Source of the DNA: Eledone cirrhosa
Lineage: Eukaryota
Assembly: GCA_964016885.1 (NCBI GenBank)
Contig: OZ024740.1
Location: forward strand, 259,160,001 to 259,224,000
DNA: 64,000 bases
Direction of reading: 5' to 3'
Part shown: positions 9,429 through 62,865 of the stretch, one piece after another
Numbering within the stretch: position 1 is the stretch's first letter
How the letters are laid out: each line of letters begins with the position of its first letter
The notes under the pieces: generated by a model
What the model saw: the letters and a program-made list of their open reading frames with translations, nothing else
The model's database searches: none
Told to the model about the DNA's origin: nothing
Program-made: the position numbers and the translations under genes

Positions 9429-12400
9429 CTACAGGCTTATGTAAAGAGAAGGCCCATTCACACGGGCCATTCTCGCCACTTTCACCCACCTTTCATAAAA
9501 ACGACTGGGGTGCAGCACCTCTCTCTCCATCCTGATCCTTCTTCCGAAATGATATCGGAAGAAACGGACCAGTTGTTGGCCAGAGAGAAAGGTGCCTGAC
9601 CTCAGTCCTTTCAGACGCGTCCACCATACAACCTCTTTCGCCATGGCTATTACGCACAGAAACACCGCCTCTGCTTCATCTTTGAAGGGGGGAGGCGGCT
9701 TGATCATTACAATAGACTCGGTGGTCAACCGGATCGGTCCCACCCTTGACAGCAGTTGTTCGACATAGCCCCACAGATCGGCTACGCCCGAGCAGTGTAC
9801 CAATGCGTGTGCAACGGTTTCCTCGTCGCACACGCATCTGGGACAGATCTTTTTGGCGGGGTCCCTACCCGGGCGCCCGTGTCTGTAGAGCCTTTCTCGA
9901 ACGGGTAAAGCCCCTCGGTAGCACTGCCAGGCCAGGGACTTCTGGAAGTTGTCCATAGGTCCCGGGCTGAATGTCCTACCGAACAGGCTGGCCAGTTCGT
10001 CCTCCTCCATGTCTAGGGCTTCTCCAAGGGCGTCGTCGCACCTGCTGCGTACCAGCCCTCTATAGAATGTTGCGGTGGAGTCTCCACTGATAACCGGATC
10101 CGCCTGCCAGAGGGCGGTGAGCGCCTGGGCACACTCAGTGTGCCAGGCGCCCAGTTTTCTCGGTCTCTGCTTGACCCAGGATTGCAGCTCGGTGAGTGAG
10201 ACGAGTCTGGGAAAGGTTCGTCTCACAAACGAGGCCCACACCGGTTGTCCGGTGAGGAATATGTAGAGGTGCCGTAGCCTTAATGCGTGTTTACGCATCA
10301 TTAGCCACGGCATCCCCAGCCCTCCTTTCGAAGGGTGTTGACAGCAGATGGATCTCCTCACCATAGGAGCCCGCCCCTTCCAAAGGAATTGGAAGAGCGC
10401 GCGCTCCATCTTGGTGAGGGTTTCCCTTGGGCAGGGCACTACGGTCAGGCGGTAGTAGATGACGGACGCTATATAAGTGTTCGCCACCTCCGCCCGACCT
10501 TTCAGGGATAGTTTGCAACTGGCCCACTTCTGGGTCAGTGCAAACACCCTGTTCGTAACCTCCGCCCAGTTTTTCTCCACCTGGAGGTCCGGTCCGAACC
10601 AGACCCCGAGCAACTTCACCGGGCCCTCCGTCCAGCGTCCGACGACGCCATCGGAGGGCATCGGTCTGCCCCTCCACGTGCCGAGTTGCAAACCGATCGA
10701 CTTGTCCCGGTTCAGCTTAGCCCCTGTGAACTTTTCGTACTCCTCCAGTAAGGTGCCGACCGCCTCGATTTCGGAGGCCGTCGACACCATTACTGTCACA
10801 TCATCGGCGTAGGCTGACACCGCTTTCCGCAATCCCGGTTCCAAAGGGATGCCCTGCAACAACTCCAACTTCCGCAGTAGTGGCTCGAGAGTCAACACAT
10901 ACAGAAGGGAGGAGAGAGGGCACCCTTGTCGGATGGACCGCGCGATTTTGAACGGCTCCGAGAGGTAGCCATTCACCTTGACCCTAGAGCAGATGCGGCT
11001 GCTGTGCATAGCAGTGATCCAGCCCCTGAAAACGGGTCCGAAGCCTGCCGCCGCTAGCACCGCATCCAGGTAACCATGGTCGACCCTATCGAACGCCTTA
11101 GATTGATCCAAGTTGATCAGAGCCCCACCAAAGCCGGGTTCGTTCCCAACCCTCTCTATGATGTATCGCATGAGGTGGAGGTTGTCATGGATGGACCTGG
11201 ACGGGATAGCGCATGTCTGCGCATCTCCCACCAGGTTGCCCACGACAAGCGCCAACCTCTTTGCTAGCACCTTGGCCAAAATCTGTAACTCTGTATTTAG
11301 CAGAGTTATGGGCCTGAAGTTACTTATTTCGTCCCCCTTGTTCTCGTCCTTCCTCACTAGCGTGACTACGCCCTTGGTCACAGTACAGGGAATTCTCCCG
11401 TTCTGTTGCCAGTTGCAGTAGACCGCCTCGAGGAGATCGGGGAACAAGTCCGGCATAGCTAGATATAATTCGTAAGGAAGACCATCGAGACCCGGGGATT
11501 TGCGTTTGCCGCATTGGCCCAGCACGTCCTCTATCTCAGCGGCCGAAATCGGCTCCTCGCAAGACTTCGCCTCCCTGTCCGAGAGGCGCGGCAGGCCGTC
11601 GAGGTATGGACCGAAGTCCACGTTTCCAACCGGCTCCCCACCCCTCCCGAACAGTCGGGCAAAGTGCCTTTGAAAGGCCTCACACATCTGCTTAGGCTCA
11701 AGAATCGCCCGTCCATCCAGGTCTCGCAAAGACCGGATGGTGGATTTAGTTCCACTGTTGGCCTCTGTCACGCGGGCCCAGCTAACAGCTTTGGCCCCCT
11801 CGTTCCCTAGAGCACGTATTTTACTTCGGACAACGCAGCCTTCGTGCTTCGCGTCGAAAAACTGGCTCAAAGCCGTTCTCGACGCTAGCACTCTGGCCAC
11901 GTCGCCGCTTCTAATTGCCTCTTCTACTCTATCTATTAGCTCCCTTTCCTTCCTATTCCTATCCGCAGCTAGAACCTTACTAAATTCAATCGAGACTACT
12001 CTAATCTCTCTCTTTAGAGATACCCACCACCTGCTGTTGACGATCGCTCCAGTCAACCGTTCCTTAACTAACGTACTAATCCGATTCCTGTAGGCTCTAC
12101 TTGCCGGCAAGGACAAGTTGAGCTTCCAGTAACCGGGGCCCTGTCTATGCGTTCTATCAAGGTTGACCATGCAGGTCACCAACTTGTGGTCTGAATAGCC
12201 AACCATGAGCATTTCTGGACAACTTAAAAAGTCCCTGTCCTTATTTCTAACTAAAAATCTATCTAGGTACGATCTAGATGATCCGCTGCGATTTGACCAA
12301 GACCAGGTTGGCACCGTCGGAAAATCTAGTCGAAATCTATCGGCCAGGTCAAATCGGCCGAGTAACCCCTTGAGGCTGTTGCACCCCTCTCTATCGGGAC

Positions 12401-12866
12401 ATGCCCCTGCATAGTCCCAACGTGCATCCAGGATACCATTCCAATCCCCCACTAAAAGCAGGGAACGGGACGTCCCTAGAAAAGACTCCAGACGCTGGAA
12501 AAAGTCGGGCCGCTCTGTCCCAAAAGGGGCATATGCGGCTATCAGCCTAAAGGCTCTACCTTCACCACTGCCAAGGTCCAGCACCACCAGTCGACCCCCT
12601 GGGTCCAAGTGAACTATCTGTGTTGCAAGGCCCATATGTTTTTGCAGCAGAACGACAACCCCACCCCCACCTCCGGGCTGACAGAGAGATGCGTGCATCT
12701 CAAAGTCGTCAAAGGTGGGGGCTAGCTGTCGCATGCTGCTGATCCGGGCCTCGCAGATAACCATCACATTTATAGATTGTGACCTGAGGTCATTTAGAAG
12801 CATTGCTTGCTTCCAAGACGAGCCCAGGCCACGCGCATTTAGACACCCTACTCTTAGCACAGCCAT
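9429..12866 (-). CDS. Tx1/L1 ORF2: AP endonuclease + reverse transcriptase + C-terminal zinc finger, intact
   Basis: Motifs LNARG, GDWN, YLDRF, SDH, KSPGLDG, FRPITLLN, DQSKAFDRV, RQGCPLS, AYADD and CPRC..ETVAHALVHC. ATG at 12866. Confidence 0.93.
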   Translation of the reverse strand: MAVLRVGCLNARGLGSSWKQAMLLNDLRSQSINVMVICEARISSMRQLAPTFDDFEMHASLCQPGGGGGVVVLLQKHMGLATQIVHLDPGGRLVVLDLGSGEGRAFRLIAAYAPFGTERPDFFQRLESFLGTSRSLLLVGDWNGILDARWDYAGACPDREGCNSLKGLLGRFDLADRFRLDFPTVPTWSWSNRSGSSRSYLDRFLVRNKDRDFLSCPEMLMVGYSDHKLVTCMVNLDRTHRQGPGYWKLNLSLPASRAYRNRISTLVKERLTGAIVNSRWWVSLKREIRVVSIEFSKVLAADRNRKERELIDRVEEAIRSGDVARVLASRTALSQFFDAKHEGCVVRSKIRALGNEGAKAVSWARVTEANSGTKSTIRSLRDLDGRAILEPKQMCEAFQRHFARLFGRGGEPVGNVDFGPYLDGLPRLSDREAKSCEEPISAAEIEDVLGQCGKRKSPGLDGLPYELYLAMPDLFPDLLEAVYCNWQQNGRIPCTVTKGVVTLVRKDENKGDEISNFRPITLLNTELQILAKVLAKRLALVVGNLVGDAQTCAIPSRSIHDNLHLMRYIIERVGNEPGFGGALINLDQSKAFDRVDHGYLDAVLAAAGFGPVFRGWITAMHSSRICSRVKVNGYLSEPFKIARSIRQGCPLSSLLYVLTLEPLLRKLELLQGIPLEPGLRKAVSAYADDVTVMVSTASEIEAVGTLLEEYEKFTGAKLNRDKSIGLQLGTWRGRPMPSDGVVGRWTEGPVKLLGVWFGPDLQVEKNWAEVTNRVFALTQKWASCKLSLKGRAEVANTYIASVIYYRLTVVPCPRETLTKMERALFQFLWKGRAPMVRRSICCQHPSKGGLGMPWLMMRKHALRLRHLYIFLTGQPVWASFVRRTFPRLVSLTELQSWVKQRPRKLGAWHTECAQALTALWQADPVISGDSTATFYRGLVRSRCDDALGEALDMEEDELASLFGRTFSPGPMDNFQKSLAWQCYRGALPVRERLYRHGRPGRDPAKKICPRCVCDEETVAHALVHCSGVADLWGYVEQLLSRVGPIRLTTESIVMIKPPPPFKDEAEAVFLCVIAMAKEVVWWTRLKGLRSGTFLSGQQLVRFFRYHFGRRIRMEREVLHPSRFYERWVKVARMARVNGPSLYISL

Positions 12867-12890
12867 GTTGGTGGTAAAGAGAAAAGGCAC

Positions 12891-15900: not shown

Positions 15901-16418
15901 ATATGTTTGCATGTATGTGTTTGTGTCCTGCACATGCAGTCGACAGCAGTTGACATGGAACTCTACAATTACTTCGAATAAAGCATGTGTACTCCAAACA
16001 CCTTCAGTTATTTACCTCCCATGTGGTTGCCACGCCTACTCCATTAAAACTGACGGTACCGAGGAAAGGAGTGGAGAAAGAGGTGAGAGAGAGAGGTGGG
16101 AGATAGGAGGGGGGAGGGGGATGAGGGAGAGATAGAGGCGAGAGGGGGTGATGGGGGGAAGGGGTGAGAGAGAGAGAGAGAGGGGGGAGAAAGGGGGAGG
16201 AACAGGAGAGAGAAAGAGGAAATGGGTAGGGAGAGAAAAGGGGTGGGAGAGAGAGAGAGGAGAGAGATTGGGAGGAGAGAGAGAGGTGTGGAGGACAATT
16301 GCGGGTGGATGACAACCGACCCAAATAATTGGACACTTAGGGTGTTGTTTACAAAACAAACGCCGCAACGAAAACATTGCAGCAGCAACAATAACAGCAA
16401 CACCAGCATCAACAGCAG

Positions 16419-16449
<31 letters not shown>

Positions 16450-16624
16450 AACCATAATAACAATAGCAACAGCAACAACAACAAAAACAACAGCAAAAAC
16501 AATAGCAGCAATAACGACAACATCAACAGCAGCAGCAACAATAACAGTAATAACAATAGCAACAGCAACAACAACAGAGGCAACAATAACAATAGCTTCA
16601 ACAGCAGCAAGAGCAGCAGCATCA

Positions 16625-18382
16625 ACAACAAAAACATCAACAACAACAACACCAGCAGCAAGGTCAGCAACCGTAATTCTAACAACAACAAAAATATCAA
16701 CAACAACAACAACACCAGCAGCAAGGTCAGCAACCGTAATTCTAACAACAACAAAAACATCAACAACAACAACAACACCAGCAGCAAGGTCAGCAACCGT
16801 AATTCTAGCCACGACAAAAACATCAACAACAACAACAACACCAGGAGCAAGGTCAGCAACCGTAATTCTAGCCACGACAAAAACATCAACAACAACAACA
16901 ACACCAGCAGCAAGGTCAGCAACCGTAATTCTAGCCACGACAAAAACATCAACAACAACAACAACACCAGCAGCAAGGTCAGCAACAGTAATTCTAACAA
17001 CAACAAAAATATCAACAACAACAACAACACCAGCAGCAAGGTCAGCAACCGTAATTCTAACAACAACAAAAACATCAACAACAACAACAACACCAGCAGC
17101 AAGGTCAGCAACCGTAATTCTAACAACAAAAACATCAACAACAACAACAACACCAGCAGCAAGGTCAGCAACCGTAATTCTAACAACATGAAAACATCAA
17201 CAACAACAACAACACCAGCAGCAAGGTCAGCAACCGTAATTCTAACAACAACAAAAACATCAACAACAACAACAACACCAGCAGCAAGGTCAGCGACCGT
17301 AATTCTAACAACAAAAACATCAACAACAACAACAACACCAGCAGCAAGGTCAGCAACAGTAATTCTAACAACAACAAAAATATCAACAACAACAACAACA
17401 CCAGCAGCAAGGTCAGCAACCGTAATTCTAACAACATGAAAAACATCAACAACAACAACAACACCAGCAGCAAGGTCAGCAACAGTAATTCTAACAACAT
17501 GAAAAACATCAACAACAACAACAACACCAGCAGCAAGGTCAGCAACAGTAATTCTAACAACATGAAAAACATCAACAACAACACCAGCAGCAAGGTCAGC
17601 AACCGTAATTCTAACAACATGAAAAACATCAACAACAACAACAACACCAGCAGCAAGGTCAGCAACCGTAATTCTAACAACATGAAAAACATCAACAACA
17701 ACAACAACACCAGCAGCAAGGTCAGCAACCGTAATTCTAACAACAACAAAAATATCAACAACAACAACAACACCAGCAGCAAGGTCAGCAACAGTAATTC
17801 TAACAACATGAAAAACATCAACAACAACAACAACACCAGCAGCAAGGTCAGCAACCGTAATTCTAACAACATGAAAAACATCAACAACAACAACAACACC
17901 AGCAGCAAGGTCAGCAACCGTAATTCTAACAACAACAAAAACATCAACAACAACAACACCAGCAGCAAGGTCAGCAACCGTAATTCTAACAACTAAAAAA
18001 ATATCAACAACAACAACACCAGCAGCAAGGTCAGCAACCGTAATTCTAACAACTAAAAAAACATCAACAACAACAACAACACCAGCAGCAAGGTCAGCAA
18101 CCGTAATTCTAACAACAACAAAAATATCAACAACAACAACACCAGCAGCAAGGTCAGCAACCGTAATTCTAACAACAACAAAAATATCAACAACAACAAC
18201 ACCAGCAGCAAGGTCAGCAACCGTAATTCTAACAACAACAAAAATATCAACAACAACAACACCAGCAGCAAGGTCAGCAACCGTAATTCTAGCCACAACA
18301 AAAATATCAACAACAACAACAACACCAGCAGCAAGGTCAGCAACCGTAATTCTCACAACATGAAAAACATCAACAACAACAA
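16625..18382. repeat. ~57-61-bp minisatellite (about 28 units) embedded in (AAC)n-rich DNA
   Basis: Unit ..aacatcaacaacaacaacaacaccagcagcaaggtcagcaaccgtaattct.. Confidence 0.95.
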
Positions 18383-21629: not shown

Positions 21630-21677
<48 letters not shown>

Positions 21678-24600
21678 CGGGTAAAATTCCCGAGATCCAC
21701 GGACGAGCTCTCTCCAGCGGTCTCTGTCCCTCATTATCGCTGCCATATCCTGCATCTCCAACAGACCAGTGTCTGTCCTTAGGGCATCAACATATGTTAA
21801 CCTTGGTCTTCCTCTTCTAGTGTGTCCATGTAGGGGCTCCCAAAGGAGCACTGAGTGCAATGTCAACTCTGGATGTCGGTGAGCATGTCCAGCCAACCTC
21901 AGTCTCCTCTGTGTCACTTTTGAGCTGACTTTTGGGATGCTCCCATACAGCTCTGAGTTTTTCATCCTCAGTGTATACTGATTAATGTTCAGAGCCATCC
22001 TCAGCATTCTCGTGTAGCACCCATCCACCATCTGAGTGAGTCTCTTGGTCAGTGTCCAAGTCTCAGACCCATACAGCAGCACAGACTCCACTACAGCAAT
22101 GAAGAGGCGGACTTTCAGGTCTCTACGAAGGTCCGACCTCCACACCGATCTCAAGCTGTGACACGCCGCCCAGGCCTTGCTCTTCCTCCCAACCACATCA
22201 TCTTCCGTATTCCCAATCTTTGCTCCCAAATACAGGAAGTCCTCAACCAATTCCAGCGGCTTCCCGCCTACATTAGTGATCCCCTCTGGCTTCTCAACAT
22301 TCTCCACCAGATATTTTGTTTTAGTCTCATTCATTCTCAGCCCCACACTCATCGACACAGTCTCAACCTCCCGCATCAAATCCTCTGCCTCCTTCACTGT
22401 ATTTGTCACCAAAACTATGTCGTCGGCAAATTCAGCATCCGATACCTTTTTCGCCCCAACTCTCCTGCTCTGAGCCGGTGCTACAGTAAAGCCAGTGTCC
22501 TGGTATTTCTCCAGTGCAAGGCGCATACAATAGTCCACTACGATGATACAAAGGTAGGGAGCCAATGTATCTCCCTGGAGCACTCCAGCCAGTATCTCAA
22601 AGAACTCTGTCATCCCATCAGGTGTAATGACTTGGGCTTTGGTGTTGGTGTAGAGCAGTGATATCAGGTCCACTATCCTCTTGGGGATTCCATAAGCCTG
22701 TAAGATCTTCATCAGGCAGTAACGGTCCACAGAATCAAAGGCCTTCCTAAAGTCAATGAAAACCATGACCGCAGGAAGGCACTTTGCTCTAGCTCCCTCT
22801 AATATCCTCCTCAGCATCAGGATGTGACTGGTGGTTGATCTACCCTCTCTGAAGCCGTTCTGGTTGTCCCTGAGCTTCTTCTCCATCTCAGGCTGGATCC
22901 TGTTAAGAATCATCCTGTTGAGGGTCTTTGCCACAAGTGACGTCAGTGAGATCCCCCGGTAGTTGTTGGTGTTAGAGAGATCTCCCTTCTTTGGCACTGG
23001 GACGATGTTACTGATCCTCCACTGATTCGGGGCAACTCCTTTCTCCAGTGCCCCGTTACAGAACCCCAGGATGATATCATCAAAATCACACCTCTTCATC
23101 ACCTCTGATGCCACTCCATCCTCTCCATGAGCCTTGCCCTCCTTGATCTTCTTCTTGGCTCTCTGAAGCTCCTCTCTGGTGAAGGGCTCTGTCTCAACAT
23201 CCAGTTCCCCAAACAGCCGCCTGATCTCCCCACTGCTCTGGGCTGTGGAGGGTGGCTCTCCTAGTAGGGTCCTAAAATGGTCTAGCCATTTCCTCTTCCT
23301 ATCCTCGGGCCCCGTTCCCTGGATCTGACTCGAACACCTTTTCTTCCTCCCTGTGATCTCGTTGATGATCATCCAGCTCTCCTTACATCCAGATCTGTCA
23401 ACCGCTCTCTCCACACTTCTGATCTTCTCTATCAGTGCCTCCTCTCTGACCTCAGTGTAAGCGGTACAGAGCTCTTCCCTCATCACCTCCACAGTCTCCA
23501 TCCTCTCCTCCGTAGGATCAGCATAGAATTGGTCCCTGGCAGCTTTCAGGTGTTCTCTGGCTGCACACACTTTTGGGTTTGCAGAGCTGACGTGCTTCCC
23601 TTTGTTCTCTTTCCTCGGCACCAGGGTTTCACTTGCTTTCGCCACTGCATTGGTGAAGTGCCCGTACCTCCTCGTCACACTCTCCTCAGTCCATCCAATC
23701 TCTCTCTCCTCTGACTCTCCACACAGAGCACTAAACCTGTTTCTCACTTCCACTGTGAACCTCTCCTGTAGCTTATCATCTTCCTTGAAAGCTCCCCAGT
23801 CATAGATTGTTCTCCGGGGCTGAGCCTTGCTCTTTCTTAAGCTCACGCGGACCTCACTCATAACAAGCCGGTGGTCACTACCCAGTGTACTGAAATAGCT
23901 GTATGGTTCCGTGTTCAGAACACTATTCCGCCACTTTTTCCTCACCAGAATGAAATCAATCTGGGACTTGGACAGGTGCATATCTGAGATGTAGGTCCAC
24001 ATCTTCCCCAGATTCTTCCTAAACCTTAGGTTGGTTGCCATCAAGTTCGCCTCCAGCAGGGTGTCTCTCAGTAGTCTTCCATTTCGGTTGGTGTTGTTAT
24101 GGAAGTACCAGCAAGGATCTTCACTGCCCTCCTTACTCAGATGTGCATTGAAGTCCCCCAAAACAAGCAGGATATTGTGTGCCTGAGTGGTGTTGACAGC
24201 CCCACACACCTCCTCATGGAACTCCTCGGCATTCACATCACTGTCCCCCTCGGTTGGACTATAGGCTGAGATGACTGTCAGTCTTGGGTTTCCATTGAAG
24301 GTCACCCTCAACACTCGCGGGGAGATAGGCATTATTTCCCTCACCAACAGATTGGTTTTTGCACTGAACACAAAACCCACTCCTCCTACTGCAGCATTTG
24401 TTGTGTTCTTCACTGCCGATGTAGTGATGAGCTGGCTCTTCCTCCCGATCATCACACTCCTCACGGGCTCATCGTGTAGAATCCTGTGTTCTTGGATCGC
24501 AAGTATCTGTATACCACTCTCCTCGAACAGATGTCCCAACTCCTCTCTCTTCTCCAGCGTCCGAATAGTCCTCACATTCAAAGTGCCCATTTTGATGGCT

Positions 24601-24767
24601 CTTCTGCAGGACAAAACTGCATTCTTTATATTTGTCTCAGAGACAGCTGATCCATCATCCACTGGCCCTCTCTGTGGCTCTAAGCCAGCAGAGTCATAAC
24701 GACCAGGCTGCTCCTTGACAGCGTAATTAGGGGCTCTAACCCTAGTGCTGTTAGATCGACTCTCCAT
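21630..24767 (-). CDS. RTE APE-RT polyprotein, uninterrupted; reads through the (TA)n tract to a TAG
   Basis: Motifs GTLNVRT, GDFNAH, QIDFIL, SDH, NYRGISL, QNGFR, FIDFRKAFDSV, GVLQGDTLAP, FADD, FLYLG and LLYGSETW. Confidence 0.9.
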
Positions 24768-24975
24768 ATTTCTTTTCAATGGCTGACAATACCTTACCGG
24801 CGCCACTCGAATAAGGTAGTTATTTAACCCATAAATGGAGCCCTAACAGGTACTACCACCCCGGGCCAGGGCAGACCTGGGAGTCATGACAACTAAGGGG
24901 TAACTCCACATTCCCCACATCTCCTGAACTCCCGAACTGGAGCCTTGCCACTGGATGTAGTTTAATGTCATACCC

Positions 24976-43068: not shown

Positions 43069-44185
<1,117 letters not shown>

Positions 44186-44994
44186 TGCTCTAAAAATCGG
44201 ACCAATCTAAAACTGCAACAAACAATCAAACATTTACAAGAGTTACCTCCCTCACACCCTACCTAATCCTTTTTCTTAAATAAATTAAATATCATCCAGC
44301 AAGAATTGCTTCCCCCTGCATATTAACTCTCTAAAAAGGGAAATCATAGTCCACGTGTCTGTACGTGTGTGGGGGATATTTTAACATGTTAAAAGATATT
44401 TTTCAGCTCTTGTCTTATACGGAGAAGTGTGTGTGTGTGTATATGTCTCTTTGTATGTTAGTATACGCGTGTGTATGTGTGTGTGTATATATGTGTGTGT
44501 GTGTGTGTGTATGTGTGTATGTGTGTGTGTGGGTGGACCAGTATTTTTGTGATACTGGTAAAAATGGTATACATTATTCGATATTTTCAGTAAAAACGAT
44601 TCTCTCAAAAGAACATCAAAAACCTTAATAATAAAAGGTGTGAAATGATATATAGTATTGTCATAACACCAAGGTGTGTGTGAGTGTCCAGATTGTACAT
44701 ACTGCAAGGGGAATCCATTAGGCTCTGCCGTATTGGAATACTTGTGTACAAATATGTATGTGCCCATCAGTGTGCAATGCATGTGTGCGTATATGTATGT
44801 GTGTGTCGGCACGTTTATATCTATAGAAATCAAAAGGTATACAAATGTGTGTATATTTGTGTTGCACCATAGAACATGTGTGTTTACGTATGTCATTGTG
44901 TTTATATGTGGATAGAGATGTATGTAGGATGTATGCTGATGTAGGTATGTATGTTGACGTGTGTATGTTGTGGGTTCGTCTTAGGGAAAAGTGT

Positions 44995-45367
44995 TTAGAC
45001 GGGGTCCGTATTTGTTAATAAAGTGAGATTCCTTGCTGATGCGCTAAGTGTGGGTGGCATTATCTTTAAATTTGTAGAGGGGAAAGATTCTGAAGTTGGG
45101 ATGATTTGGGCGGCACAGGTATCAATGTGTTCACTCAGTGGTATTTTCCTGTATTCCCGTATTTTAATTTGGGATCTATGGACAATCATGCGTTGGCGGA
45201 GGCTGTTTTGGTCTGGCCTATGTATTGTTCTCGACAACCTGAGCAAGTTAATACATATATTAGATTTTCTGATGCGCATGTGAAATTGTGTTTTACTATA
45301 AAACGTTGTCCTTCTTTCAAATAGAATTCCGAACCCTCTATAAGGTTGATGCATATGCCACAGTTGG

Positions 45368-45370
<3 letters not shown>
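44995..45370 (-). pseudogene. Related PLE GIY-YIG fragment, convergent with the previous one
   Basis: Minus strand PNCGICINLIEG and SLRQRMIVHRSQIKIREYRKIPLSEHIDTC. Confidence 0.8.
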
Positions 45371-45420
<50 letters not shown>

Positions 45421-45553
45421 AAGAATATTTTCGAAACAGCGAGTGGGTTTGAAAGTATTAGAAATGTAAGCTATCGCCGTATTTTGACTAAAGAAATTAA
45501 AGAAATTATTTACCCTGATAGTGGGGTTAGGAACCCTCGGAGACATAGAAAAA

Positions 45554-45626
45554 GATGAGTGCATGGGAGTCGAACCCACATCTTTGGTTATCCGGACCAC
45601 TGTGCTACCATTTACACCAACACATC
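45554..45626 (-). tRNA. tRNA-like Pol III unit (pseudo-tRNA; loop CCGGATA, nominal anticodon GGA) followed by T5
   Basis: Acceptor GATGTGT/ACTCATC, D arm GTGT/GCAC, anticodon stem TGGT/ACCA, T arm GTGGG-TTCGACT-CCCAT. Non-canonical C33 and T-arm spacing. Confidence 0.5.
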
Positions 45627-45657
45627 ACCCATCACCATTTACCCAAAACATCAGGGT

Positions 45658-45731
45658 GATGTGTTGGTGTAAATGGATATCACAGTGGTCCGGATAACCA
45701 AAGATGTGGGTTCGACTCCCATGTACTCATC
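45658..45731 (+). tRNA. Second tRNA-like unit, divergent (head-to-head) from the first, followed by T7
   Basis: A box TGGTGTAAATGG, B box GGTTCGACTCC, T7 at 45732-45738. Confidence 0.5.
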
Positions 45732-45822
45732 TTTTTTTCATTTCTCCGAGGGTTCTTAACCCCACTATCAGGCTAAATAATTTCTTTAATTTCTTTAGTC
45801 AAAATATATATATATATATATA

Positions 45823-46598
45823 TTAAATATTTTAAATTGGGAAGATACGGAAAAAACTCCAGTTTAATAGTTATTATGAGACCATTTTGTCAAAATAAGT
45901 TTAAATTTTAAAGATATAAATGTTGAAAGATATATTTAGCCTGAATTAGTTAGTGGTTATAAATCTAATAAAAGATATTAAAAAATGTTATTAAAAAATA
46001 TTAAAGAATATTAAAAATTCGGGAAAATTTAAAAAAATATATTTTATAAGAAATAAGTAGGTTTAAAAAAAAAATAAGTATTTTTTTTTAAATAAGTCAT
46101 TTTTAAAATATATGAAAGATTTAAGAAGTAAAAAATAAAAAATCTAAAGAATTAAAATACCTTAAAAACATATTTAAATTAAAGTTAAAATTAAAAATTA
46201 AAATTTAAAAATTTAGGATCATATATGTATATAATTTAAGAAATTTTAAGAAGTGAAATTATAAGAATTAAAATTATAGCAAACAATATATTAAAACAGA
46301 GTGGATAAGATTGTTATGGAAATAAGTAGAAATATTTTAAGTGTAATTATAATGTATATATAGTTGAATTTAAGCGATGTTTACATGAACTAAATAAATT
46401 TATTCGTACATTAATAGAGTTGCTACATTTAAGTATGAAGAAAATGTCCTCAACACACAATTTACAAAATCTAGCTAAAGCTGTGTTTCGGTAGGCAGGT
46501 GCTTTCTGAAATTATTTCCCAAGTTAAAGAATAGTCCGTATTTTTGGATTTTAAGTTTCATATCAGGTTTGATAGAAAGGTTTGTTCGTTTCTTGTTC

Positions 46599-49512: not shown

Positions 49513-49519
<7 letters not shown>

Positions 49520-51322
49520 CGTAGTTAAGAAAGCCACAACAATGCAGAGGGAAATCTCGAGGTAGGAAGTGAATGATAGATAGGAGAAACAGGTGAAAGT
49601 GAAAATTGAGAGAGACAAAGATGAAAACAAAACAACCGTAGAAGGGTTACCGTAGTGGAGATTTAATCCCAATATTTCGGGCTCACGCCCATCAACGGGG
49701 GAAAGTTCCAAAAGGGGGGGAACAGGCCAAGCGGAGAAAGTTGTGATGTCGTTAAGACAGGAATGCCGTTATGGGGAGAAAATTATTTAAAATTTAAACG
49801 AGGGAAAGAATGCGCGTGCGCATGATAGGCTGTGGCAAAAGCTACTGACCAAATGGGTTAAATCAAGAGGGTGCGCTAGCGTGTGAAGGCCGTAAGATAT
49901 GTGTGTGTAAATATATATGTGTGTGTAACTGTGTGTGTATAAGTGTAAGTGTGTATATGTGTGAGTGTGTGTGTGTGTGAAAGATAGTGGGCTGTAGAAG
50001 CTGGAAATCAAAGGGTGTGAAAGGTGGTAGGTTGTAAAACATGTGTACGAGTATAAATATAGATGTGTGTGTGTAAGCGTATGGGTATACATGTGTGTGT
50101 AACTGTGTGTGTATATGTGTGAGTGTATGTGTGTGTGAAAGATAGTGGGCTGTAGAAGCTGGAAATCAAAGGGTGTGAAAGGGGGTAGGTTGTAAAAACA
50201 TGTGTGCGTGTATAAATATAGATGTGTGTGTGTATGCGTATGGGTATGCATATACGTGCGTGTGTGTGAAGATAGCAGGCCGTAGGCTGTGAATGGTCAC
50301 TATGGTTAAGTTAGCCATGTCAGCTCATTTCTCTCAGCTCGGTTGTTAAGTGGGGGTCTGAGGTTCTTAATAACAAGTGCTTCCTTTATCCTTAAGGATC
50401 CGATGCTGCGTTCAGTCGCTAGGACTGTGACCAAGGGTCTACCCTGTGGGTTTCCGCATTTAAGGATGTGTTTACGGAAGGAAGATGCGTTGGTGTTGAT
50501 ATGTTCCTTGATACGAACATGTAGGGGTCGGATGGTGCTACCTATGTAAAACTTGTTACATTTATCGCATTGAATCTTATATACGACATAGGTGCGTAGG
50601 CAATCTGCCCCCCGTATCGGGCAGTTGCTGAGGGAACACATCCCATCTGACTCGTCGGGTTTGTTGGAGAGGCATCTTCGCAGCGAAGGTCCTGTGTGGG
50701 CCAAATGTATGTCAAGTCCCTCCGTCCGTATGGCCCTGCGGATGGCGTTCGTGGTATATTCACTCAGGTGGGGGATTTTAAAGAAGCACCTGCTTTTATA
50801 TAAGTTTCTAGTGGGTGTCTGTCTATTGGGTCTGGGGTCTCTAATTCCGTTAATCAGTCGCTAGGGATAACCATTAGATCTGAGTAGATTACGGAATTGC
50901 GTGGTATGGGTGAGACCACCCATCGGGTCGCTGCATCTGTTAGTGATCCGTGTCAGTTCATTTAGGACATAGCCTCTCTTAGCGTTGTTGGGGAGGGCTG
51001 AGTTATAATGCACAAATAAGTCCTTGCACGCTGCTTTGCGGTAGAAGGTGGTGTTTATGTCTCCTTCTTCCGAGATGTTGATACGGAAGTCGAGGAGGGC
51101 GAGTGACCCGTCTTCTCCTGGGTGTTCGATGGTGAAATCGACGTGATGGTCAGTATCGTTGAAATTTGGTGAATTTCATTCGCCATCTCCCGGGAAGAAG
51201 TAAGTATCAGTATGTCATCAACGTATCTGGAGTAGAAGGCGACGGCGTTGGGTTGGCAGGTATTGAGTGCCTTGCGTTCCAGGTGGTTCATGTACGAGAT
51301 CGCAAGTATGCCGGACAGACTA
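49513..51322 (-). mobile_element. 1.8-kb inverted copy of the 3' part of the adjacent PLE
   Basis: Reverse complement of 52683-54482 with few differences. Confidence 0.95.
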
Positions 51323-54300
51323 CAACCACCACCAACTGCGACTCCATATACAAACGCTTTCCGAGCACATAGATCGTATAGCTCCAACCCTCACCCCTGA
51401 CCACCAGGTCCAGGAAATACGCAAAGCTATAGATCAGTGTTACCACACCAGAGTCAAATATGATAAACAGCGCCTTATACGGAAATACGAATGGACTGTA
51501 AACAAATACTACAATGACAACATCCGCTCCCACAGACGGACCGACTACAACCACACCAGGGGCAACAGCTATACAACACCCTCCGCTACACCCCCCAACA
51601 TCGATCTACCTACCAACGATGCTTCACACCTCGTTACCGACTTAACCGGTACCCTCACCAACGACGAACTCGAACTTCTGCGCCTCGGACCCAAGTTCAT
51701 CATTACACAGCGTCTCGATGATAGACTGAAACTTGACATCGAAACCAACTTCTTTCGGACAGCATATCAACTGAAATGGCTAACCGCCATCCAAAACAAC
51801 ACCGAGATCGATTACAACCCCACAACCCACCCCACACTCCCCACGTATCACCTCGACAGCCCACTCCACCCCCCACCCACCAACCAGGAACTTGACACTA
51901 AACTACTCAGGTTGAAACATTCTATCTCTAACATCCTTTCCCAACACACACACACACAATAAACGCAACCTCACCAATGCACAATTTAATACTCTCACCA
52001 ACCTAAGATCCAGGAACCTTGTGTACCTTCCCTCTGACAAGGGGAAAGAATTCTGTGTCATCTCGAGAGAGACCTACAACAACTTAGCTCTCCAACATCT
52101 TAATGACCACAGCCTCTACTCGAAAGTCACAGGGACCTCCTCGACTCTAATCGAGGAAGGCATTAACACCATATGGACTAACATCTGTGTCCAACGAAAA
52201 CTGCCAAAGAAGGTAAAAAACAACATAATGACTCGAAACAGCAAATTACCCACCTTCTACCACCTGGTTAAAACACATAAACAAGGACCCGATTTGAAAA
52301 TCAGGCCCATTGTCTCTAGCGTGGAGGGCCCACTCTACAAAATATCGTGGCTGCTCTCCACACTACTGAAACCCATTCTACACACACTACCAGCCCACGT
52401 CTGCAGCTCAAAGGAGGTCTTGGAGCGACTACACCATCTGGCGCCCAACACCAGAAAGGACAACGGTTATGCCTTCAGTCTTGATGTGGTCGCCCTTTAT
52501 ACCTCCGTACCAGCATCCCCAGCTGTCGACCTGTTGACCGAACGAGTCCGAGCATCTAACTTACACTGCTTCGGACTCACACACACGGACATCCACCAAC
52601 TCCTCTCCTTCGTTGTGGATAATGCACTCTTCAATTTCCTCGGCCACACGTACAAACAAATCTCTGGGCTACCTATGGGCTCTAGTCTGTCCGGCATACT
52701 TGCGATCTCGTACATGGACCACCTGGAACGCAAGGCACTCAATACCTGCCAACCCAACGCCGTCGCCTTCTACTCCAGATACGTTGATGACATCCTGATA
52801 CTTACTTCTTCCCGGGAGATGGCGAATGAAATTCACCAAATTTCAACGATACTGACCATCACGTCGATTTCACCATCGAACACCCAGGAGAAGACGGGTC
52901 ACTCGCCCTCCTCGACTTCCGTATCAACATCTCGGAAGAAGGAGACATAAACACCACCTTCTACCGCAAAGCAGCGTGCAAGGACTTATTTGTGCATTAT
53001 AACTCAGCCCTCCCCAACAACGCTAAGAGAGGCTATGTCCTAAATGAACTGACACGGATCACTAACAGATGCAGCGACCCGATGGGTGGTCTCACCCATA
53101 CCACGCAATTCCGTAATCTACTCAGATCTAATGGTTATCCCAAGCGACTGATTAACGGAATTAGAGACCCCAGACCCAATAGACAGACACCCACTAGAAA
53201 CTTAAATAAAAGCAGGTGCTTCTTTAAAATCCCCCACCTGAGTGAATATACCACGAACGCCATCCGCAGGGCCATACGGACGGAGGGACTTGACATACAT
53301 TTGGCCCACACAGGACCTTCGCTGCGAAGATGCCTCTCCAACAAACCCGACGAGTCAGATGGGACGTGTTCCCTCAGCAACTGCCCGATACGGGGGGCAG
53401 ATTGCCTACGCACCTATGTCGTATATAAGATTCAATGCGATAAATGTAACAAGTTTTACATAGGTAGCACCATCCGACCCCTACATGTTCGTATCAAGGA
53501 ACATATCAACACCAACGCATCTTCCTTCCGTAAACACATCCTTAAATGCGGAAACCCACAGGGTAGACCCTTGGTCACAGTCCTAGCGACTGAACGCAGC
53601 ATCGGATCCTTAAGGATAAAGGAAGCACTTGTTATTAAGAACCTCAGACCCCCACTTAACAACCGGGCTGAGAGAAATGAGCTGACATGGCTAACTTAAC
53701 CATAGTGACCATTCACAGCCTACGGCCTGCTATCTTCACACACACGCACGTATATGCATACCCATACGCATACACACACACATCTATATTTATACACGCA
53801 CACATGTTTTTACAACCTACCACCTTTCACACCCTTTGATTTCCAGCTTCTACAGCCCACTATCTTTCACACACACATACACTCACACATATACACACAC
53901 AGTTACACACACATGTATACCCATACGCTTACACACACACATCTATATTTATACACGCACACATGTTTTACAACCTACCACCTTTCACACCCTTTGATTT
54001 CCAGCTTCTACAGCCCACTATCTTTCACACGCACACATATACACACTTACACTTATACACACACAGTTACACACACATATATATTTACACACACATATCT
54101 TACGGCTTTCACACGCTAGCGCACCCTCTTGATTTAACCCATTTGGTCAGTAGCTTTTGCCACAGCCTATCACGCGCACGCGCATTCTTTCCCTCGTTTA
54201 AATTTTAAATAATTTTCTCCCCATAACGGCATTCCTGTCTTAACGACATCACAACTTTCTCCGCTTGGCCTGTTCCCCCCCTTTTGGAACTTTCCCCCGT

Positions 54301-54517
54301 TGATGGGCGTGAGCCCGAAATATTGGGATTAAATCTCCACTACGGTAACCCTTCTACCTTTGTTTTGTTTTCATCTTTGTCTCTCTCAATTTTCACTTTC
54401 ACCTGTTTCTCCTATCTATCATTCACTTCCTACCTCGAGATTTCCCTCTGCATTGTTGTGGCTTTCTTAACTACGTATTTTACACATTTCACAATGCTTC
54501 AAGCAAACTTTAACACC

Positions 54518-56155: not shown

Positions 56156-59100
56156 TCTTTCTTTATTTGCCACAGGGGCGTACAAAAATAGGACATTACA
56201 AGACGTGACGGTGGGGGTTTTACATAAAAATAACTTTAACATTAATAAATAACAATAAAATATATATAATAAAATAACAATTGAAATCCCCAGTAGGGGG
56301 GAACGTTACTGCAGGGTTGTTTTACACCTCGTGCATAGAACAACCCTCCATACCAGGAACACGTTTTGTAGGTGTTCCTGTCTTCCCTCTGTGTATCTTC
56401 CTCAACTTACAGGTTTATATACAGAGAAGGCCCATTCACTCGGGCCATTTTTGCCACATTCACCCACCTTACAGCGAATTTACTGGGGTGTAGCACCTCT
56501 CTCTCCACTCTCACCTTCCTTCTGAAGTGGTACTTAAAGAAGGGATAAGTTGTCCGGAGAGAAAGGTGTTGGCTCTCAGTCCTTTTAACTTCGTCCACCA
56601 TATTATCTCTTTCGCCATAGCCACCAGACAGAGGAAAGCCGCCTCTCCTTCGTTCTTAATGAAGGCGGCGGGGTGATCCTCACGATGGACTCGGCTGACA
56701 ACTGGATGCGTCCCACACGTGACAGCAGCTGTTCGACATAATTTCACAGGTCGGTCACTACTGGGCACTGAACAATTGCGTGCAGAACGGTTTCATTGTC
56801 CTGCTCGCATCTTGGACAGCTCCTTTTGGCAGGATCTCTGCCAGGGCGTCCGTGTCTGTAGATTTTGTTTCGAACTGGTAGAGCTCCTCGGTAGCACTGC
56901 CAGGCCAGAGACCTCTGGAAGTTATCCATAGGCCCTAGACGGAAAGTCCTCCCGAACAGACTGGTCAGTTCGTCCTCCTTGATGCCTAGAGTTTCCCCGA
57001 GAACGTCGTCGCACTTATCCTCCACTAATCCCTTATAGAATGTCGAAGTGGAGTCTCCGCTGATTGCCGTTTCCGCTTGGTAGAGGGCTGTGAGCGCCTG
57101 TAGGCACTCGAGGTGCCAGGCACCCATTTCGGTCTTTGCTTGACACAGGACTGCAGCTCTGTTAGTGAGGCGAGTTGTGGAAGAGCTTGTCTCACAAACG
57201 ACAGCCACACCGGTTAACCGGTCAGGAATACCTGGAGATGGCGTAGCCTCAGCGCATGTTTGCGCATCATCAGCCACATCATGCCCAGCCCTCCGTTAAA
57301 AGGGTGTTGATAGCAGATGGATATCCTCACCAATGGAGCCTGTTTCTCTTCCAGGGGAACTTGAAGAGTAGGCGTTCCATTTTGGTAAGGTATTTGCGGG
57401 GGCAAGGCACGACTGTCAAGCGGTAGTAGATGACGGACGCTATGTAAGTGTTCGCCACCTCCGCTCGACCTTTCAAGGAGAGTTTGCACTCATTCCACTT
57501 CTGGGTGAGTGCAAACACCTTCACCGTGACCTCGTTCCAGTTCTTGTCCACCTGGAGGTCTGGACCGAACTAGACCCCGAGCAATTTCAACGGTACTTCC
57601 GTCTAGCGTTCAACGACACTGTCGGAAGGCATGGGTTTGCCTCTCCATGTGCCGAGTTGCAAACCGACAGACTTGTTTGGGTTTAGTCTTGCTCCTGTCA
57701 ACGTTTCGTATTACCCTGATTTCCGAGGTTTTCGACACCATTACGGTTATGTCGTCGGCATTGGCTGACGCTGCTTTCCGCAGTCCTGATTCGATCGGGA
57801 TGCCCTGCAACAGCTCCAATTTCCGCAGTAACGGCTCGAGAGTCAGTACATACAGAATGGGGGAGAGAGAGCATCCCTGACGGATGGAACGCATGATTTG
57901 GAATGGCTCTGATAGGTAGCCATTCACCTTGACTGCCGAGCAGATGCTGGTGTGTATGGCAGCGATCCAGCCTCTGAAGACGGGACCGAAGCCGGCCGCC
58001 TTGAGAACTGCTTCCAAGTATTGATGGTCGACCCAATCAAATGCCTTAGACTGATCTAAATTGATCAGAGCCCCACCAAAGCCAGATTTACACCCTACCC
58101 TCTATATGATGTATCGCATGAGGTGGAGGTTGTCGTGTATGGACCTGGTCGGGATTGCACACGTTTAGGCTTCCCCTACCAGGTTCTCGACGACAAGCGC
58201 CAGCCTTGCTGCTAACACCTTGGCCAATATCTTTAACTCTGTGTTGAGCAGAGTTATGGGCCTGAAATTGCTTACCCCATCCCCCTTGTCCTCATCTTTC
58301 CTAATCAGCGTTATTACGCCTCTGCCTACAGAACTGGGAATCATCCCGTTCTGCTGCCATTTGCAGTAGACCGCTTCGAGGACGCAAGAGAACAATTCTG
58401 GCATGCCTAAATAAAACTCATAGGGTAGCCCATCTAAACCGGGTGATTTGCGTTTCCCGCAGCGGCCTAGGGCATCTATTTCGCCCGCTGTGATCAGCCT
58501 TTCGCAGCTCTCCGCATCCGTGCTCGAGAGTCGCGGTACGCCGTCGAGGTAGGAGCTGAAGTCCATCACCTCGCTCGATGTACCGCTTTGCCCGAACACT
58601 TGTGCAAAATGCTGCTGGAAGGCCGTGCACATCTGCTTGGATTCAAGTATAATGCATCCATCTTTGTCTTGCAAAGACCGAATTGTGGATTTGCCACCTT
58701 TCACCTCTGCCACTCGGGCCCAGCTAACAGCTTTGGTTCCCTCGTTTCTTAGAGCACGTGTTCTACTTCTGACAATACAACCTTCGTGTTTCACGTTGAA
58801 GAACTGGTCTAGTGCCGTTCTCGCCACTAGCACGTCAGCTATACTGCCATTCCTAAGTGCCTCTTCTATTTTAGTTACCAGTTCCTTTTCAGTTTTGTTT
58901 TCTAAAGCTACTTCCTTGCTAAATGCTATCGATACTATTCTAATTGCTCTCTTGAGAGAACTCCACCACCTGTTGTTGACGATCGACCTCGTCAACTGGC
59001 ACTAATGTGCTAATCCATTTATTGTAGGCCTTACGCGCCGGGAGCGACATGTTTAGCTTCCAGTATCCGGGTCCCTGTCTATGTATTCTATCAAGGTTGA

Positions 59101-61405
59101 CTACGCAGGTGACTAATTTGTGGTCTGAATAAGCAACCATGTACATTTGTGGACAGCTTAATCTTCCCTTATCATTCTGTCTAATTAAAAATCTATCTAA
59201 ATACGATATACAAGACCTATTGCGGTTGTTCCACGTCAACAGTGGTGCACTTGGGAAGTCTAGTCGATATCTATCAGGCAGTTGGAATTGGCTGATGAGT
59301 TTTTTAGGGTATTACAGCCCCCTCTATTATCACAAGCTCCTACATAGTCCCAACGTGCGTCTAAGATGCCATTCCAGTCCCCCGCTAACACTAAGGAGCG
59401 AGACGTTCCTAGGAATGGCTCCAGTCGCTTGAAGAACTCTGGTCGCGATGTCTCAGTCGGGGCATATACGGCTACCAGTCTGAAAGCTCCACCTTCACTA
59501 CCATTCTCGTCCAGGACCACCAGGCTGCCCTCCGGGTCCAAGTGAATCGTCTGTATTTTGAGATCCAAGTTTTTTCGAAACAGAACAGCAACTCCCCCTC
59601 CACCTCCTGGCTAATAGAGAGATGCGTAGATCTGAAAATCATCGAACATGGGGGTTAGCTGCTGCTTGTCGTGAATCCTGGACTCGGTGATGTCTATCAC
59701 ATCTATACAATGTGACCTGAGATCATTTAAAAGCTGGCCCTGTTTCCAGGACATGCCCAGGAAACGTACATTCAAACATCCAGCTTGTATAGTCGCCATG
59801 TTGGTGAAGATGAGTTAAGGAGAGAAAAGGCAGGAACACTTACCTTTTCGTTTCCTGGAGGTTGTTCGATCTCCATGTCCATATTGGTGATGCTTGGGGA
59901 GGGAGGGAATCCTTTTAGAAGGACACGGTTAAGGGGCTTTTGGCAAAGGGGGCCCACATCATGTGGGAAATTCTCTTTTAAAGTTTCATACTGTAGGGTT
60001 GCTACCCTTATAAGTTTGAGGTTTGGGGGTGGGTCGTTGGTGGGGAAGGTTTTCTCTTCCGTTTGTATTGTGGGGTCCTTTCGGACAGTTTCCCCCAGTT
60101 CTTTGTTTCTTGTTTTTATTTATGTGTAGTGTGTTTTGTTTTTTATGTGTACTGTTTCTGTTTGTAGTTTTCTTTTTGTGGTTGGGGTTTGTGATTGTGG
60201 TGGTGTGGGTGTTTGTTTTGTTGGTGAAGTGTTTGGTTGTGTTGGTGGTGATTGTGTTGTTAGTGTGTTTGTCGTTTGTGGCGGTGTGTTTATGGAGGGG
60301 TTGGGTGTGTGCGTCTTTTCTGTAGATGTTTTTTGTGTCTTTTTTGTGTCTTTTGTTTTGGGGATTTTGGGGGTTCCTCTTCATTCTCACTTGGAGATGT
60401 AGAGGTTCCCGTATCTGAGACTTCTGAATCAGGGGTAGATGGGAGGGGTATGTTGTGTGGTGGAGTGTTTGTGCAGGTGTTTGTGGAAGTATTTGACAGG
60501 GGGGAGAGGCAATGGACGGTTTTTCAGTGGTATTTTGTGTGTGTTTGTTGTCTCTGGTCTGTGGTGGTGTGGGAGTGGATGATGCAGGTGTTTGTGTTGT
60601 GTTTGGTTTGGAGTGTTGAAGTTGGTGTTTTGGTATTGGTAATAACACTTTGTTTGTCCTCGGTTTGTTTAAGAGAGGGCAAAAGGCCTTTAAGTGTGTG
60701 GTTTTCCCACATTTATGGCACTGAGGTCTTTCCCCCTCCACTAAAATGGAGATGACATCTTCCTCAAGGACGATCCTGTCCGGTATTTTATCAACTCTCT
60801 CTGGCCTTGTTTGTAGCAGAACCTCTATGCAGGTTCCAAACCAGTTATGCCGGTCTGTCCTGTCTACAGATAGGAGGGTGTCCTCATCCTTCTTCAGGAT
60901 GCAGCGTAGGATCCATCATATGTTGACCTCTGCTGGGATCCTGGTTATTTTTATTTTGTAGGATCTTCTTCCCATGTATGTGGGGAAGATGTGTTGATCC
61001 GTTTTTATTGGGTGAACCGAGTGTTTTTGTGCCAGAGTTTCGCTCTTAAAGAGCACTGACACACTTCCATACTGTTTACCTCTTTGGAGGTATGACACGT
61101 CTGGCTTGATATCTTTTAGTGCATCTTCGATAGTGCTTGTTGGGAGCCTTATGGGTTTTTTGGTAGTGATGTCAACTGTTCTATAAATTATCTTGTTTTT
61201 CTGTGTCATTTCTCTTACTTGTGGGGGTATGTGTATGTGTGTGGTGTCTCCCTCAAACGTCACATAGTTGGAAGCCTCTTGCAAATATTGGGACTTTTGG
61301 GAAATGTAGTATTTAAAATCCTCTTCCTGCAAATGAAAATTTTGTTATTGTTGTTGGTGGTGGTGATGATGGTCTCATTCGTTGTGTTGCCACTGATTCC
61401 TTTTG
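56156..61405 (-). mobile_element. Decayed, 5'-truncated Tx1-like element (relative of 9165-14956) with 17-bp TSD
   Basis: Many frameshifted ORF2/ORF1 fragments homologous to copy 1. TSD aaaYcaataaatagata at 56139-56155 and 61406-61422. Empty site in the right arm. Confidence 0.92.
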
Positions 61406-61579: not shown

Positions 61580-61640
<61 letters not shown>

Positions 61641-62865
61641 AAATATTTTAAATTGGGAAGATACGGAAAAGCTCCAATTTTGTTTATTTAATAGTTATTA
61701 TGAGACCATTTTGTCAAAATAAGTTTAAATTTTAAAGATATATTTAGTTGAAAGATATATTTAGCCTGAATTAGTTAGTGGTTATAAATCTAATAAAAGA
61801 TATTAAAAAATGTTATTAAAAAATATTAAAGAATATGAAAAGTTCTGGAAAATCTTTTAAAATTTTTTATAAAAAATAAAAAAATTTAAAAATTAAAAAA
61901 AAAAAGATTTATTTTTTAATTTTGAAAAGAATTTTTAAAATTTTAAGAAACCTTAAAAAATATTTTATAAGAGATAAGTAGATTTTTTAAAAAAATAAGT
62001 AATTTTTTTTAAATAAGTCATTTTTAAAATATATGAAAGATTTAAGAAGTAAAAAATAAAAAATATAAAGAATTAAAAAACCTTAAAAACATATTAAAAT
62101 TAAAGTTAAAATTAAAATTTAGGATCATATATGTATATAATTTAAGAAATTTTACGAAGTGAAAATATAAGAAGTGAAATTATAGCAAACAATATATTAA
62201 AACAGAGTGGATAAGATTGTTATGGAAATAAGTAGAAATATTATAAATGTAATTATAATTTATATATAGTTGAATTTAGGCGATGTTTACAAGAACTAAA
62301 TAAATTCATTTGTACATTAATAAAGTTCCTACATTTAAGTATGAAGAAAATTTCCTCAAAACACAATTTGCAAAATCTAGATAAAGCTGTGTTTCAGTAG
62401 GCAGGTGCTTTCTGAAATGATTTCCCAAGTTAAAGAATCGTCCGTATTTTTGGATTTTAAGTTCCATATCAGGTTTGAGAGAGAAGTTGAAGATTTTTTT
62501 TAAATTACTTATTTTTTAAAAATTAATGATTTTTTTTTAAATCTACTTATCTCTTATAAAATATTTTTTAAGGGTTCTTAAAATTTTTTTTAATTTTTTA
62601 GAAATTTAAAAAAATGTTTTTATTTTTTTTTTATAAATTTTTTTTTAAGATTTTCCCGACTTTTTAATATTGTTTAATATTTTTTAATAAAATACTTTAA
62701 TATCTTTTATTAGATTTATAATCACTAACTAATTCAGGCTAAATATATCTTTCAACATTTATATCTTTAAAATTTAAACTTATTTTGACAAAATGGTCTC
62801 ATAATAACTATTAAATAAACAAAACTGGAGCTTTTTCCGTATCTTCCCAATTTTAAATATTTAAA

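Follow-up and report, generated by a model that had tools for sequence, protein, structure and literature searches.

The schistosome repeats Sm-alpha and Sj-alpha have a tRNA-related head, lie in tandem at high copy number, give rise to multimeric transcripts and carry a hammerhead ribozyme, and Sm-alpha is apparently transcribed by RNA polymerase III (Pol III) (PMC6765202, PMC2770079; here and below, published systems are described as in the accessible portions of the sources). The non-LTR retrozymes of animals, short non-coding tandem repeats of 170-400 nt whose defining feature is a type I hammerhead and which are related to pLTRs, have been proposed to be non-autonomous derivatives of Penelope-like elements, or PLEs (PMC7229834; bioRxiv 10.64898/2026.07.22.740005). 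PLEs themselves are recognised by partial tandems, inverted 5'-truncated copies and a 30-40-bp tail (PMC8557442), and two reverse transcriptase (RT) start sites with extension of both target strands have been described for a PLE protein (PMC11167929). Endonuclease-positive (EN+) PLEs target (TA)n and, together with the non-autonomous Chlamys passenger MRC1, display these insertion features with the tail on one side only; Naiads lack a hammerhead (PMC8557442, PMC11167929). The tRNA SINEs are short, non-autonomous and equipped with a tRNA-derived internal promoter, and by definition depend on a LINE RT and follow a head-body-tail order (SINEBase, PMC3531059). Finally, the TRIMp3 elements Helenus, Ajax and Cassandra have a small-RNA-derived Pol III promoter in a passenger of LTR type (PMC10886601). 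The comparison also drew on the accessible portion of PMC6962438.

The 272-nt repeat described here resembles each of these systems in part. As in Sm-alpha and Sj-alpha, it is tandem, tRNA-related, abundant and likely Pol III-transcribed, but no hammerhead was found in it; data on a PLE tail or on inverted arms are not given for the schistosome repeats in the accessible portions of PMC6765202 and PMC2770079. Its period of 270-272 nt lies within the range of the retrozymes, whereas a tRNA module stands in place of their hammerhead and no pLTR homology was detected. With the EN+ PLEs it shares insertion into (TA)n, inverted 5'-truncated copies next to tandem ones and a one-sided tail, and with Naiads the lack of a hammerhead; unlike EN+ PLEs it has no ORF, and no partner was found of the kind whose 3' sequence non-autonomous Chlamys elements generally match. 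No tRNA module is described for Chlamys elements or MRC1 in the accessible portions of PMC8557442 and PMC11167929. A and B boxes, a length below 700 bp and the absence of coding capacity are as in a tRNA SINE, but the unit is permuted and tandem, so that there is no 5' head, it has no tail of its own, and its ends are of PLE rather than LINE type. Beside TRIMp3 it would be the PLE counterpart. The unit works like a non-autonomous PLE and has a SINE-like promoter; it is neither a retrozyme or Sm-alpha element nor a strict SINE. A search of the open literature (Repbase, Dfam, subscription papers and supplements such as File S1 of PMC8557442 lay outside it) returned no paper on a tRNA-bearing, ribozyme-free PLE passenger; within that literature the remark of a preliminary description that such a structure was not recognised as described holds for the exact combination, while Sm-alpha and the non-LTR retrozymes are near precedents.

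The preliminary description had drawn attention to a palindrome of two divergent tRNA-like units in a 64,000-nt stretch of the Eledone cirrhosa genome (hereafter, the window). Its palindrome, boxes and flanks were confirmed, its unit size and terminator were not, and its interpretation received support in part. We consider it probable that the locus is a damaged, ordinary back-to-back pair of truncated copies of the 272-nt tRNA-bearing repeat, transcribed by Pol III and mobilised in trans by a PLE, likely of the endonuclease-positive type. Features are listed in Table 1, where q1-q272 number a reference monomer (L006:1451-1722).

Table 1. Features of the palindromic locus, in window coordinates.
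Feature	Position	Strand	Remarks
Left target microsatellite, (TA)23	45371..45416	.	
Left arm, unit q51-q272	45418..45630	-	Extends to the long 3' end
36-nt PLE-type tail, q237-q272	45418..45453	-	Left arm only; placed from the family's 3'-end positions
Small GGGTT/AACCC body hairpin	45523..45538	-	
T5 run	45549..45553	-	Putative leaky Pol III terminator; in intact tandem copies, 3' strand of the predicted 18-bp stalk
Left tRNA-like unit	45556..45626	-	RF00005, 33.7 bits; 8-nt deletion in the acceptor 3' strand
Left A box	45619-45608	-	
Left B box	45576-45566	-	
Spacer at the arm junction, abortive error-laden third copy of q54-q74	45631..45653	-	19/21 positions match, by eye
Right arm, unit q51-q210	45654..45806	+	Early end at an AT-rich site running into the TA repeat
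Right tRNA-like unit	45658..45729	+	Under the RF00005 cut-off at 26.8 bits; shares the 8-nt deletion and has, in the D arm, a 1-nt insertion and a substitution
Right A box	45665-45676	+	
Right B box	45709-45719	+	
T7 run	45732..45738	+	
Small GGGTT/AACCC hairpin	45748..45763	+	
Right target microsatellite, (TA)n	45805..45823	.	

The inverted arms, originally placed at 45480-45630 and 45654-45806, are real and 94.8% identical over 153 alignment columns. The hairpin after each T-run, the (TA)n on both sides and the derivation of the 23-bp spacer from an arm, specifically from its start, were likewise borne out. A one-sided extension of 65 bp had been reported; the left arm is indeed the longer, by 62 nt, an asymmetry made up of the family's usual 36-nt tail and the atypically early end of the right arm. 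Both arms contain A and B boxes as claimed, but only the left unit passes the RF00005 cut-off of 29 bits, and ARAGORN at default settings reported 0 tRNAs at the locus. Eight nucleotides of the acceptor 3' strand are missing from both arms, leaving 4/7 acceptor pairs in the left arm against 7/7 in an intact copy. The same deletion is present at two other loci, at one of them on just one of two arms, so that it likely recurs by slippage. It is because of this deletion that a T-run stands directly behind the tRNA-like unit in the window; in the family at large the run lies 9 nt further downstream, and the immediate oligo-T terminator of the preliminary description is thus a product of local damage. 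Since the window arms have no leader, most of the 18-bp stalk cannot form there. Across the (TA)23, the left neighbour of the palindrome consists of Neptune-like PLE fragments in inverted arrangement (43186-45371). On the right lies an AT-rich repeat (45824-46582) whose copies at 61638-62865 form another fold-back.

The unit of about 150 bp first proposed proved to be part of a monomer of 271-272 nt, repeated head to tail (with a period of 270-272 nt in L006) and containing 50 nt more before the tRNA leader. A search of the species' own genome (3.0 Gb) gave 1,360 candidates, 40 of which were scored. That the repeat is multi-copy, a point on which its standing as a dispersed element had been made to depend, is clear from 2,050 exact matches to a 25-mer of the body, 511 exact matches to a pattern from the tRNA 5' half and 2,519 matches, with up to 2 mismatches, to a tail pattern; the reversed controls gave 0 in every case. 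A sibling family with a unit of about 259-260 nt accounted for 1,137 pattern matches (reversed control, 0). As 55 of 150 arms carry the exact body 25-mer, we estimate the number of arms at about 5,600. At least two further subfamilies were seen, one with a reshuffled acceptor stem and one more diverged, with a changed T-run (L302, L303, L314, L316, L041; L306, L313, L323). The 64-aa frame of the monomer had no Pfam match. Rfam matches to miRNA families stayed below cut-off and were set aside as generic hairpin matches.

In an intact copy the tRNA-like part (q55-q126) scores 42.4 bits against RF00005, above cut-off, and the family retains a complete cloverleaf in which the anticodon loop is non-canonical, which fits the earlier designation as a tRNA mimic. 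Scores of this kind, together with the finding that the tRNA part is the least diverged (3.3%, against 5.6-6.8% for body and tail, in a sample drawn in part by tRNA patterns and with sibling copies in it) and that pieces of relatives occur in sequencing runs of other organisms (4/4, two with the circularly permuted joint), might be taken to indicate a passively spreading family of functional tRNA or small-RNA genes. Against this stand C33, U37, a 27-43 mismatch and a GGA on a short variable arm, which by the canonical rules make decoding unlikely. Neither a canonical loop nor, in the window arms, an unbroken acceptor stem is present, and the 5' two-thirds of the tRNA are absent from most arms of the family. 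A gene family of this sort is therefore very improbable, and the tRNA-like part is better regarded as a promoter that is unlikely to decode. No source tRNA was identified: the 16 genome tRNA matches found agree at 35-44 of 72 positions (63 of 552,091 candidates scored). In the D arm, q76 (tRNA G22) varies to three bases in 10/61 arms. Within an insertion the two arms usually disagree at this position (14 vs 3), in the manner of a second misreading hot spot, and it is in the q76 region (45678-45680) that the right arm of the window has its insertion and substitution.

The mode of insertion was analysed in 63 of the first 65 exact-anchored insertions on one contig (C1); as the two left out are long copies, the sample exaggerates truncation slightly, and the exact anchor biases it towards young copies. 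Divergent pairs made up 41 of the 63 insertions and convergent pairs none; the remainder were single arms (20), one tandem only and one complex arrangement, and a head-to-tail junction occurred within 7/63. TA flanked both sides of 36/41 pairs, and (TA)3 directly followed 65/72 arm 3' ends. These ends fall into two modes: among 77 arms, 35 end at q221-238, 37 at q263-278 and none in between, while 5 run into the next monomer. The distance between the modes, about 36 nt, amounts to a one-sided tail within the PLE range of 30-40 bp. In 32 of the 41 pairs one arm is long and the other short; 6 are long/other, 2 other/other and 1 short/other, and no pair is long/long or short/short. Such strict pairing supports, in vivo, the view that the two RT start sites known from in vitro work are used one on each target strand. 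A subfamily marker at q222 is common to both arms in 52 of 62 informative pairs; since inverted arms usually have the same markers, both come from one source. An internal control was provided by a near-perfect fold-back with RT and GIY-YIG in the window itself (49515-54480), an autonomous PLE with a one-sided 39-nt tail. Of the ten largest nearby end clusters that bear a hammerhead, most have bimodal ends as well.

Because this architecture matches the PLE hallmarks, mobilisation by Penelope-type rather than LINE enzymes is likely, and the earlier attribution to Penelope machinery is well supported by the family as a whole, with no partner element identified among the loci searched. What had been read as a pair of stand-alone small-RNA genes proved to be two truncated copies of a tandem unit, the divergent pairing being a by-product of insertion. 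The same data bear on two disfavoured explanations. A tRNA SINE of the ordinary, LINE-dependent kind, duplicated secondarily in inverted orientation, would account for the tRNA-derived head with A and B boxes, the length below 700 bp and the lack of any ORF family match; the described octopus SINEs are OK, OR1 and OR2. It would not account for a tRNA placed inside a circularly permuted tandem unit, for the lack of a poly(A) or simple-repeat tail of the unit's own, for two fixed 3' ends distributed one per arm in 32/41 pairs, or for pairs that are divergent and never convergent, and we hold it highly unlikely. Still less credible, although the locus resembles terminal inverted repeats inserted at TA, are a fold-back DNA element or MITE and an error of assembly: arm ends are asymmetric and fall at RNA-like positions, the centres are variable, single arms and tandems are common, and the two arms in the window differ by 5%. 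No public contig crosses the spacer, which is not informative on the point.

Traces of the RNA template were sought in a second sample of 73 arms, anchored on the tRNA 5' half (L131-L200), from which seven insertions already sampled were left out. The 5' ends of 26 arms lie at q47-59 and those of 8 at q1-46, while 39 lie in the upstream monomer. Thus, 26 of the 34 arms that begin in their own monomer do so at q47-59 (P = 2e-11 against a uniform distribution). The commonest single end is q51 (6 arms), where both window arms begin; 9 arms begin at q54-56, flanking tRNA position 1 (q55). The purine that immediately precedes the tRNA is consistent with initiation by Pol III. Apart from the T-run, the sense strand of the monomer, as read from the sequence, has no stretch of T as long as four nucleotides, so that templates must arise by read-through. 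The copied RNA must in fact reach 100-145 nt beyond this run, contrary to the initial picture of a small-RNA gene that, unlike a SINE, ends at its oligo-T. For the 39 arms that reach the upstream monomer, transcription must have passed two T-runs, unless the template was a circle or a Pol II read-through product.

Most arms do not get as far as the presumed RNA 5' end. Of those that reach q124, 37/48 stop at q108-124, in the T arm, where the stop rate is 4.5% per nt as compared to 0.5% and 0.2% on either side; in the sibling family 13/19 arms stop at the T arm. This barrier is real. Mutations are also two to three times as frequent at A58 of the tRNA (q111) as at two control adenines of its 27-mer: alongside 1,298 intact copies, the genome-wide count gave 45 variants at A58 and 23 and 15 at the controls (P = 7e-5), with a pattern that would miss a subfamily differing elsewhere in the 27-mer as well. 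The variants are spread over three bases and several subfamilies (30 of 45 variant loci examined), and, in a count enriched by loci retrieved for the variant, they are common to both inverted arms in 1/22 informative pairs, against 52/62 for the q222 marker. As m1A causes arrest and misincorporation (PMC4787781), m1A58 is a plausible, unproven cause of the barrier, to which we would give an even chance. Arrest at m1A58 should leave arms that end exactly at q112, and there are none. The stop peak at q116-117 (18/37) overlaps three 4-nt palindromes and a TA-like microhomology site, so that it is shaped by preferences in joining. Among 61 arms selected independently of any tRNA pattern, 2 have a changed A58, exactly as many as are changed at either control adenine. 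Nor does the base spectrum discriminate, since the second control is as rich in T (9/15) as A58 (22/45). Taken together, the 5'-end cluster, the T-arm stops and the A58 excess suggest a Pol III transcript that would be handled like a tRNA.

It is conceivable, though rather unlikely, that the repeat is a PLE passenger whose template is a multimer, a circular RNA or a product of Pol II read-through. In that case the tRNA part would act at the RNA level, replacing the hammerhead in processing or stability, and the ends at q51-56 would be RNase P-like cuts or structure stops. Such a reading would accommodate the 39/73 arms that cross into the previous monomer and the 9 arms whose ends flank tRNA position 1. 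It also draws on folding. An 18-bp stalk with the T-run in it is predicted between leader and trailer of tandem copies; about 91.5-93.5% of its cells are paired in the 49 of 112 copies aligned, subfamily changes in it are mostly A/G opposite U (16 and 25 of 49 rows), and the sense strand folds better than the antisense strand in 112/112 copies. However, the commonest 5' end, q51, lies 4 nt upstream of the cloverleaf, inside the stalk, and a paired leader is expected to hinder RNase P. Covariation across copies, named in the preliminary description as a check, did not rise above that of shuffled alignments: one pair showed a two-sided change and 406 of 500 shuffles scored as high. Folding also tells against the preferred reading: in the isolated unit the cloverleaf is predicted at -14.4 kcal/mol, against -17.5 kcal/mol for the minimum-energy fold, and two whole-unit folds gave z = -0.22 and -0.69.

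Under the preferred reading, Pol III transcription of a trans-mobilised PLE passenger, events might proceed as follows. Pol III would start at q51, some 4 nt ahead of the tRNA, and would sometimes read through the only T-run, yielding a tRNA-body-tail RNA or, from tandem copies, multimers. By analogy with published PLE biochemistry, the PLE protein would cut both strands in (TA)n and reverse transcription would begin from two internal sites separated by 36 nt, usually a different one for each strand. The outcome, evident in the DNA, is two arms with their 3' ends outward, one long and one short. Most arms halt at the T arm, presumably on account of the tRNA fold and probably of m1A58; those that pass it tend to halt where the RNA 5' end would lie. 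The inner ends might be joined by microhomology or short template jumps, as exemplified by the 23-nt spacer.

Searches for a partner covered 50 GIY-YIG loci of 10,597 candidates, with Naiads not among the queries: an autonomous PLE with the same 3' end was found neither in 30 loci and the window nor in 20 loci of 10 kb. When the unit's 3' end was compared with 52 3' ends the best P was 0.04, uncorrected, and with 23 hammerhead-bearing end clusters 0.07; all extra tail matches (9/9) were copies of the family. A likeness to a Neptune-like 3' UTR (16/18 nt) was judged to be chance (P 0.04-0.15, uncorrected), as it does not lie at that element's end. At one locus (L192) the unit's 5' end (q51) is joined without TA, through short microhomology, to the 3' region of a Hydra-like PLE, possibly by template switching. 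It was not retained as evidence for a partner, being 1 of 45 non-self, non-TA junctions, which involve many kinds of repeat. A trimer of the unit matched no Rfam ribozyme family to E=10, and the hammerhead core CTGANGA is absent from both strands of a dimer. The possibility of a degenerate antisense hammerhead was weighed and rejected.

By definition SINEs parasitise LINEs, and it is only recently that the Pol III passengers of LTR elements, the TRIMp3, received a name; a ribozyme-free PLE passenger with a tRNA promoter would fill a third slot beside them. The 272-nt unit would serve as a minimal template for studies of PLE transposition, and units of this kind inflate tRNA and miRNA annotations. 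One may go further and propose a class of ribozyme-free Pol III "SINEs" that parasitise PLEs, in which a tRNA mimic has replaced the hammerhead and the RNA is started and methylated like a tRNA, a tentative idea that we would sooner doubt than endorse. If it were true, the T-arm stops, the A58 misreadings and the 5' ends at a Pol III start would constitute, across thousands of genomic copies, an in vivo record, in DNA, of PLE reverse transcription and RNA modification.

Other repeats were noted in passing. A different dispersed repeat, of at least about 1 kb, contains a tRNA of 53-72 bits (L283, L285-L293, e.g. G000:C5:99222941) with a mostly GGC anticodon (variants GAC, AGC, GGT and GTC), so that G34 is mostly present, as in the 272-nt unit; its flanks are conserved and its fixed upstream end often lies at (TA)n. 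Genes resembling tRNA-Thr form a tandem array accompanied by decayed copies (L282, L284; G000:C1:243.65-243.68 Mb). Elsewhere in the window, two long retrotransposon-like ORFs, of 1,153 and 1,070 aa, and a degenerate relative of the former occupy positions 9432-12890, 21633-24842 and 56402-59806, and a 63-bp minisatellite (16386-18382) of about 28 copies has long open frames on both strands.
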